Source: Pseudomonas phage pf8_ST274-AUS411
Length of the DNA stretch: 10,061 bases
Strand: one strand, 5' to 3'
Sequence record: MN710383.1
Position 1 is the stretch's first letter; each line of letters opens with the position of its first letter. A program made the position numbers and the translations under genes. Positions 3,779 to 3,871 of this stretch are shown here, piece after piece. The notes under the pieces are model-generated. The model saw only the letters and a program-made list of their open reading frames with translations. It was not told the origin of the DNA and made no database searches.

Positions 3779-3871
3779 ATGTTCCGCTATCTCTCGCTGT
3801 TCGCGGTAGGTCTGGCCACCGGTTACGCCTGGGGCTGGATCGACGGCCTAGCGGCCTCCCTGGCTGTTTGA
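3779..3871 (+). CDS. pfsE: PfsE-like superinfection-exclusion peptide (30 aa, PA0721-like) that inhibits type IV pili via PilC
   Basis: The ORF is too short for the ORF track. An AGGAGG Shine-Dalgarno at 3767-3772 precedes the ATG at 3779. It translates to [30 protein letters not shown], which carries the Y16/W18/W20 aromatic motif of Pf4 PfsE. It sits between the ssDNA-binding protein gene and the PA0722-like gene, as in Pf4. Confidence 0.85.

Follow-up and report, generated by a model that had tools for sequence, protein, structure and literature searches.

The 10,061-nt stretch of DNA analyzed here (the window) comprises nearly the whole of a Pf-type filamentous prophage of Pseudomonas aeruginosa, and over most of positions 1656–9088 it is 92–97% identical to Pf genomes (megablast against phage records). 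Its g5–pfsE–PA0722–coaB block (Table 1) is 96–98% identical to Pf records in which PA0721/PfsE is annotated at the same place. Counterparts of g5 in related records are annotated as helix destabilizing protein or PA0720, and PA0722 has been named gIX (PMC12328805). The hairpin that follows coaB is a weak candidate for the end of the abundant g5-to-g8 transcript. No copy of the 3′ end of the tRNA-Sec gene, as an att repeat, was found inside the window, which places the left end of the prophage outside the window. A tRNA-SeC insertion site is on record for one other Pf phage, PfAC13.

Table 1. Features of the prophage and of the pfsE locus, in window coordinates.
Feature	Position	Strand	Basis and remarks
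Repressor-position ORF, 88 aa	1693–1959	−	Intact
Excisionase/activator gene	2087–2302		Intact
PflM/DUF5447 gene	Between excisionase and g5
g5 ssDNA-binding protein (PA0720 homologue)	3328–3762	+	phrog_1144, E = 5.4e-90; stop 16 nt before pfsE ATG
Shine-Dalgarno AGGAGG	3768–3773	+	5-nt spacer to pfsE ATG; read directly, present in 82/83 related sequences, pattern enriched in window
pfsE (PA0721 / Pf1 orf30 / 'gVII') CDS	3779–3871	+	30 aa + TGA; translation, identity to public alleles, coding-type substitutions
TTC (F2), sole difference from commonest allele (CTC, L2)	3782–3784	+	Allele comparison
Y16-A-W18-G-W20-I-D22 codons, aromatic motif and acidic residue	3824–3844	+	Invariant or nearly so in family alignment; mutants in PMC8764522
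PA0722 homologue, 83 aa	3884–4135	+	phrog_1147, E = 7.4e-46; starts 12 nt past pfsE stop
coaB major coat protein gene	4148–4396	+	phrog_2145, E = 5.1e-47; last gene of the tightly packed g5–pfsE–PA0722–coaB block
Terminator-like hairpin with T-rich tail, after coaB	4507–4528	+	Consensus scan; such sites occur in the region at chance expectation
coaA, then g6-like gene	After coaB, before Zot
Zot/g1	6252–7535
Integrase	8898–9938
tRNA-Sec	9966–10061	−	Just past integrase gene end

Three further genes of the prophage deserve mention. The variable region at the left end holds a 512-aa accessory gene (1–1539, minus strand) of low GC content (approximately 40%, against approximately 60% in the phage core), the product of which has a GmrSD_N/DUF262 domain, a C-terminal HNH nuclease and a weak PADLOC match to NsnA. 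None of the Pf loci fetched has a counterpart, and the gene is a candidate for anti-phage cargo. Another very short gene (7532–7633, plus strand, 33 aa) overlaps the zot stop codon; because its N-terminus matches the pftP primers (PMC11769263), it is assigned as a predicted homologue of the Pf toxic membrane peptide PftP (PA0726.1). At the PA0717 position (2302–2826, plus strand), 174 codons are open and overlap pflM in another frame. This long frame is also open in two relatives (L100 and L149), and the gene at this position is 70 aa long in many other Pf prophages.

The initial annotation had described a 30-aa ORF with a perfect AGGAGG Shine-Dalgarno sequence, and both are present: the translation matches exactly, from ATG to TGA over 30 codons, and an in-frame TAG at 3767–3769 leaves no alternative start upstream of the ATG. 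The window has five matches to AGGAGG-N4-9-ATG, against an expectation of 0.59 from shuffles, and three of these sites lie ahead of phage-strand ORF starts, namely those of the ORF at 2302, pflM and pfsE. As in the PfsE family, the ORF stands alone, spans about 30 codons and has a ribosome-binding site of its own, and it is placed between the g5 ssDNA-binding gene and PA0722/coaB. It also has the family's YxWGW at residues 16–20 (the Y16, W18 and W20 codons at 3824–3838) and the acidic residue at position 22, here Y16-A-W-G-W20 and D22. The gene had been called unlisted, which holds for the ORF track of that first reading only, given that public records carry it as Pf1 'orf 30', PA0721 or PfsE.

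Compared with the commonest PfsE allele (MLRY...SLAV), the window peptide is identical at 29 of 30 residues and differs by L2F only. It is 28/30 identical both to Pf1 orf30 and to the T29 allele encoded by published cloning primers. Which of these figures applies to Pf4 PA0721 depends on its residue 29: the cloning and mutagenesis primers in PMC8764522 encode L2 and T29 (...SLTV), the UniRef label of the PAO1 entry, Q9I5K7_PSEAE, goes with A29 (...SLAV), and a search for the peptide string in the full text of papers gave no match and thus did not fix residue 29 as A or T. The proposed alignment to Pf4 PA0721 hence gives 28 or 29 of 30 identical residues, and at the sequence level both differences fall outside the conserved core. 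The published family extends down to 66% identity.

Public sequences already include the exact F2 peptide: an ORF of phage WX-TY matches it at 100% identity, and in phage pf8_ST274-AUS411 it is named gp07. An assembly collection has it as a called gene in 740 blocks, in each of which it is flanked by a 144-aa SSB and an 83-aa ORF. Annotations at the same position in other records are PA0721 (AY324828.1), 'PfsE (Phage superinfection exclusion protein PA0721)' (PfAC04) and 'orf 30' (Pf1, X52107.1). The identification as pfsE made in the initial annotation is borne out by the 29/30 identity to the commonest allele, the g5–pfsE–PA0722–coaB position and the retained YAWGW and D22. With high confidence, we identify 3779–3871 as the pfsE gene (PA0721 orthologue, Pf1 orf30) of a P. 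aeruginosa Pf-type filamentous prophage. Judged from its sequence, pfsE here is an already known gene, and every family feature examined was found.

The homologues from Pf4 (PA0721), Pf5 (PA14_48960) and Pf6 have the same length, the same slot and the same YAWGW-I-D core, with 28–29 of 30 residues identical, and the window gene belongs to the same family and very probably has the same function. It differs from them by L2F (relative to the commonest allele) and by A29 instead of the primers' T29, both naturally variable positions, and its prophage differs in adjoining a tRNA-Sec gene, in carrying another accessory gene and in having a broken rep. Pf1 orf30 ('3.2 kDa protein', VG030_BPPF1, X52107.1) lies between gene 5 and orf83/gene 8 and differs at residues 2 and 29; Pf1 is a non-integrating phage.

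No family model for the peptide was found in Pfam, PHROGs, NCBIfam or PADLOC, and a profile search of all PDB chains returned only a chance match to an antibody (CDR; E = 0.59). With no curated family model and no solved structure, PfsE membership rests on direct sequence identity and synteny. Labelling of pfsE is inconsistent: many records, some of them from a single study, have 'hypothetical protein' where others have PfsE, and the missing model in Pfam, PHROGs, NCBIfam and PADLOC v2 may explain this. Four Pf phage records (OR801191, OR801193, OR863246 and PP058144) contain a 96.7%-identical PfsE ORF labelled 'hypothetical protein', and the paper on these phages counts PfsE in only 10 of 12. 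It seems that pfsE is universal in those Pf genomes and that the count reflects an annotation gap.

Variation at the locus was assessed in 83 sequences, comprising the window and 82 related loci fetched via the neighbouring SSB gene. The pfsE ORF is present in all 82 related loci, and 20 nucleotide alleles occur among the 83 sequences, with 5, 0 and 9 variable sites at first, second and third codon positions, that is, second positions never vary. As expected of the PfsE family, the gene evolves as protein-coding sequence. Amino-acid changes are limited to residues 2, 25, 29 and 30, with residues 3–24 invariant, so that this stretch, Y16-A-W-G-W20 and D22 included, is clearly under purifying selection. 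F2 is found in 6 of the 83 sequences, plus many public genomes, and distant homologues have T, S or I at residue 2. An antisense 40-aa ORF at 3823–3945 was dropped because the codon-position pattern fits the plus frame only.

The window peptide has a GRAVY of 1.13 and only two charged residues, R3 and D22. AlphaFold2 predicts a single helix over residues 2–29 with a mean pLDDT of 93.6. Such a single hydrophobic helix is compatible with inner-membrane insertion, as in the PfsE family, for which an inner-membrane location with a cytoplasmic N-terminus has been inferred (PMC8764522); both the hydropathy and the helix model would fit an inner-membrane peptide.

In published work, expression of PA0721 in PAO1 deltaPf4 suppressed twitching and blocked plaquing of Pf4 and JBD26, and in two-hybrid assays PfsE interacted with PilC only, out of eight pilus proteins; the E80 allele, 66% identical, was active too (PMC8764522). 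A second target is PqsA, which PfsE binds; PQS signalling falls and Pf replication is enhanced (PMC10473763). The evidence for binding of PilC and PqsA comes from two-hybrid, pull-down and overexpression experiments with the Pf4 allele (PMC8764522, PMC10473763), and Table 1 of PMC12328805 lists PilC, PilJ and PqsA as partners. The statement in the initial annotation that PfsE binds PilC, suppresses type IV pili and blocks superinfection is hence published for Pf4 PfsE, but it leaves out the inhibition of PqsA and PQS. Its further claim that the Y-x-W-x-W triad is essential needs narrowing. The motif is present, and Y16V and W20A abolish activity, but W18A leaves partial activity, and the Y16V and W20A proteins were undetectable by western blot, from which the authors suggested a role in stability or membrane insertion (PMC8764522). 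What is essential is two residues rather than a triad, subject to the caveat about stability.

According to the published work, binding of PfsE to the type IV pilus platform protein PilC prevents pilus extension and so removes the receptor of Pf and of other pilus-dependent phages, and binding to PqsA lowers PQS signalling and favours Pf replication. The L2F allele of the window would be expected to behave like characterized PfsE, given that residue 2 varies in nature and that twitching inhibition by Pf4 PfsE is unimpaired by a His tag at the N-terminus. Like PfsE, the superinfection-exclusion proteins Aqs1 of phage DMS3 and Tip of phage D3112 are encoded by phages, inhibit the assembly of type IV pili and block pilus-dependent phages, but they are unrelated to PfsE and target the ATPase PilB instead of PilC (PMC8764522).

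When 1.84 billion cluster representatives were searched, only four clusters reached E ≤ 0.001, indicating that the family is narrow. Its four divergent members, of 28, 28, 31 and 33 residues, come from Pseudomonas sp. EaCA-3, an IMG/VR contig and two metagenomic inoviruses, and they belong to Pf-like elements and one small Rep_1-type inovirus. All four lie directly 3′ of an ssDNA-binding gene, and downstream of each come a small hydrophobic ORF and a gene resembling that of the major coat protein. YL..FAVGLA.GY.WG is the core shared across the family. Neither W20 nor D22 is universal, one metagenomic homologue having F for W20 and the other S for D22, hence the conserved N-terminal half, not the aromatic triad, may be the ancestral functional core of the PfsE family. 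In the two metagenomic inoviruses the PfsE-like peptides of 31 and 33 aa lie within L220 2117–2473 and L221 3001–3543, and the next small hydrophobic ORF begins on their stop codon (an overlapping ATGA-type junction). Loose-motif matches in viral contigs and genomes were mostly long proteins with Y.WGW.DG, unrelated by ORF length and context.

Given that the ORF is very short and that spurious ORFs abound in GC-rich windows, 3779–3871 might be an untranslated chance open frame. We consider this extremely improbable: the Shine-Dalgarno sequence is conserved, substitutions are biased to synonymous changes, the ORF is conserved in all 82 related loci and at the same position in distant inoviruses, and deletion and expression have published phenotypes. 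A different question is what the peptide is primarily for. It could be the Pf g7 (pVII) minor coat protein, capping the first-emerging end of the virion, with pilus inhibition as a side effect, or moonlighting, of a membrane-stored pool. PfsE resembles the pVII of Ff phages (M13/f1) in size and hydrophobicity, both being hydrophobic peptides of about 30 aa encoded directly after g5 and before g9/g8. In Ff, no phage is made by mutants in g7. In the window and in the distant loci alike, a small hydrophobic ORF directly follows g5 ahead of g9/g8, and the place of PfsE corresponds to that of g7 in the canonical inovirus order g5-g7-g9-g8-g3-g6-g1. The 31-aa homologue in the small Rep_1-type inovirus sits in the order ssDNA-binding protein, 31 aa, 38 aa, 44 aa, large ORF, DUF2523 and Zot. 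The literature points the same way in listing PA0721 as 'pfsE(gVII)', minor capsid protein and superinfection-exclusion factor (PMC12328805), and in terming it a capsid protein (PMC13532354). However, Pf4 deltaintF4/pfsE gives DNase-protected, infectious virions at titres comparable to controls (PMC8764522, PMC10473763). In these published deletion mutants, unlike in Ff, the gene is thus dispensable for virion production, which argues against an essential g7-type role. Moreover, direct detection of PfsE in virions is not reported in the papers cited here, PfsE has no detectable sequence similarity to Ff pVII, and the profile search of all PDB chains found no relative, structurally characterized pVII included. 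On balance we regard a primary coat function as rather unlikely; it is compatible with, not opposed to, the identification as pfsE. Similarly tentative is the idea that, in an inovirus lineage associated with Pseudomonas, PfsE may have begun as a g7-type protein of the virion tip and later been recruited to bind PilC and PqsA; homologues with the conserved core occur in the g7 position even in the small Rep_1-type inovirus, which is not Pf-like. The capsid label is already in the literature, and only the deeper homologues and the shifted conserved core are new here.

Whether pfsE, once identified, has any phenotype in this lysogen is a separate matter. The initial annotation had predicted from its presence that the lysogen is protected against pilus-dependent phages, a prediction that goes too far: uninduced PAO1, a Pf4 lysogen, twitches and stays sensitive, and exclusion is transient and tied to active Pf replication (PMC8764522). 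In PAO1 variants, resistance tracked with active Pf6 replication (PMC13532354), and for clinical isolates an involvement of PfsE in phage resistance was estimated as less probable than that of systems found less often. Carrying pfsE by itself does not make a lysogen resistant to pilus-dependent phages. In the window, moreover, the rep gene (PA0727/RepF homologue, 7749–8898) has a 164-nt internal frameshifting deletion with its junction at 7901/7902 and a 3-nt CTG microhomology, which splits it into ORFs of 51 aa (7749–7904) and 330 aa (7906–8898) in different frames. In the nearest relative (L193), identity is 100% as far as 7901 and 99.6% beyond it; this locus has the extra 164 nt, at 9815–9978, and an intact ORF of approximately 431 aa. 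None of the related loci compared, more than 34 in number, has the junction. The split gene probably leaves the prophage replication-defective, and because the deletion disrupts the replication initiator gene, autonomous RF replication, and with it high pfsE dosage and expression, is doubtful. Hence, pfsE may be intact but phenotypically silent in a prophage that is repressed and cannot amplify, the strain twitching and staying sensitive to pilus-dependent phages. The behaviour of uninduced PAO1, the link to active replication, the estimate for clinical isolates, the intact 88-aa ORF in the Pf-repressor position on the opposite strand and the rep deletion all speak for such silence. However, the intact excisionase/activator could still induce transcription of the single integrated copy, and a co-resident Pf prophage might supply Rep in trans, so that we see the case for a silent gene as evenly poised.

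One of the core genes of Pf phages, pfsE has been on record as an ORF from the Pf1 genome onwards and under experimental study since 2022, and its recognition here has little significance beyond correct annotation of the gene. A lysogen that carries it should not be taken to be constitutively phage-resistant, a point that bears on the choice of pilus-dependent therapeutic phages.
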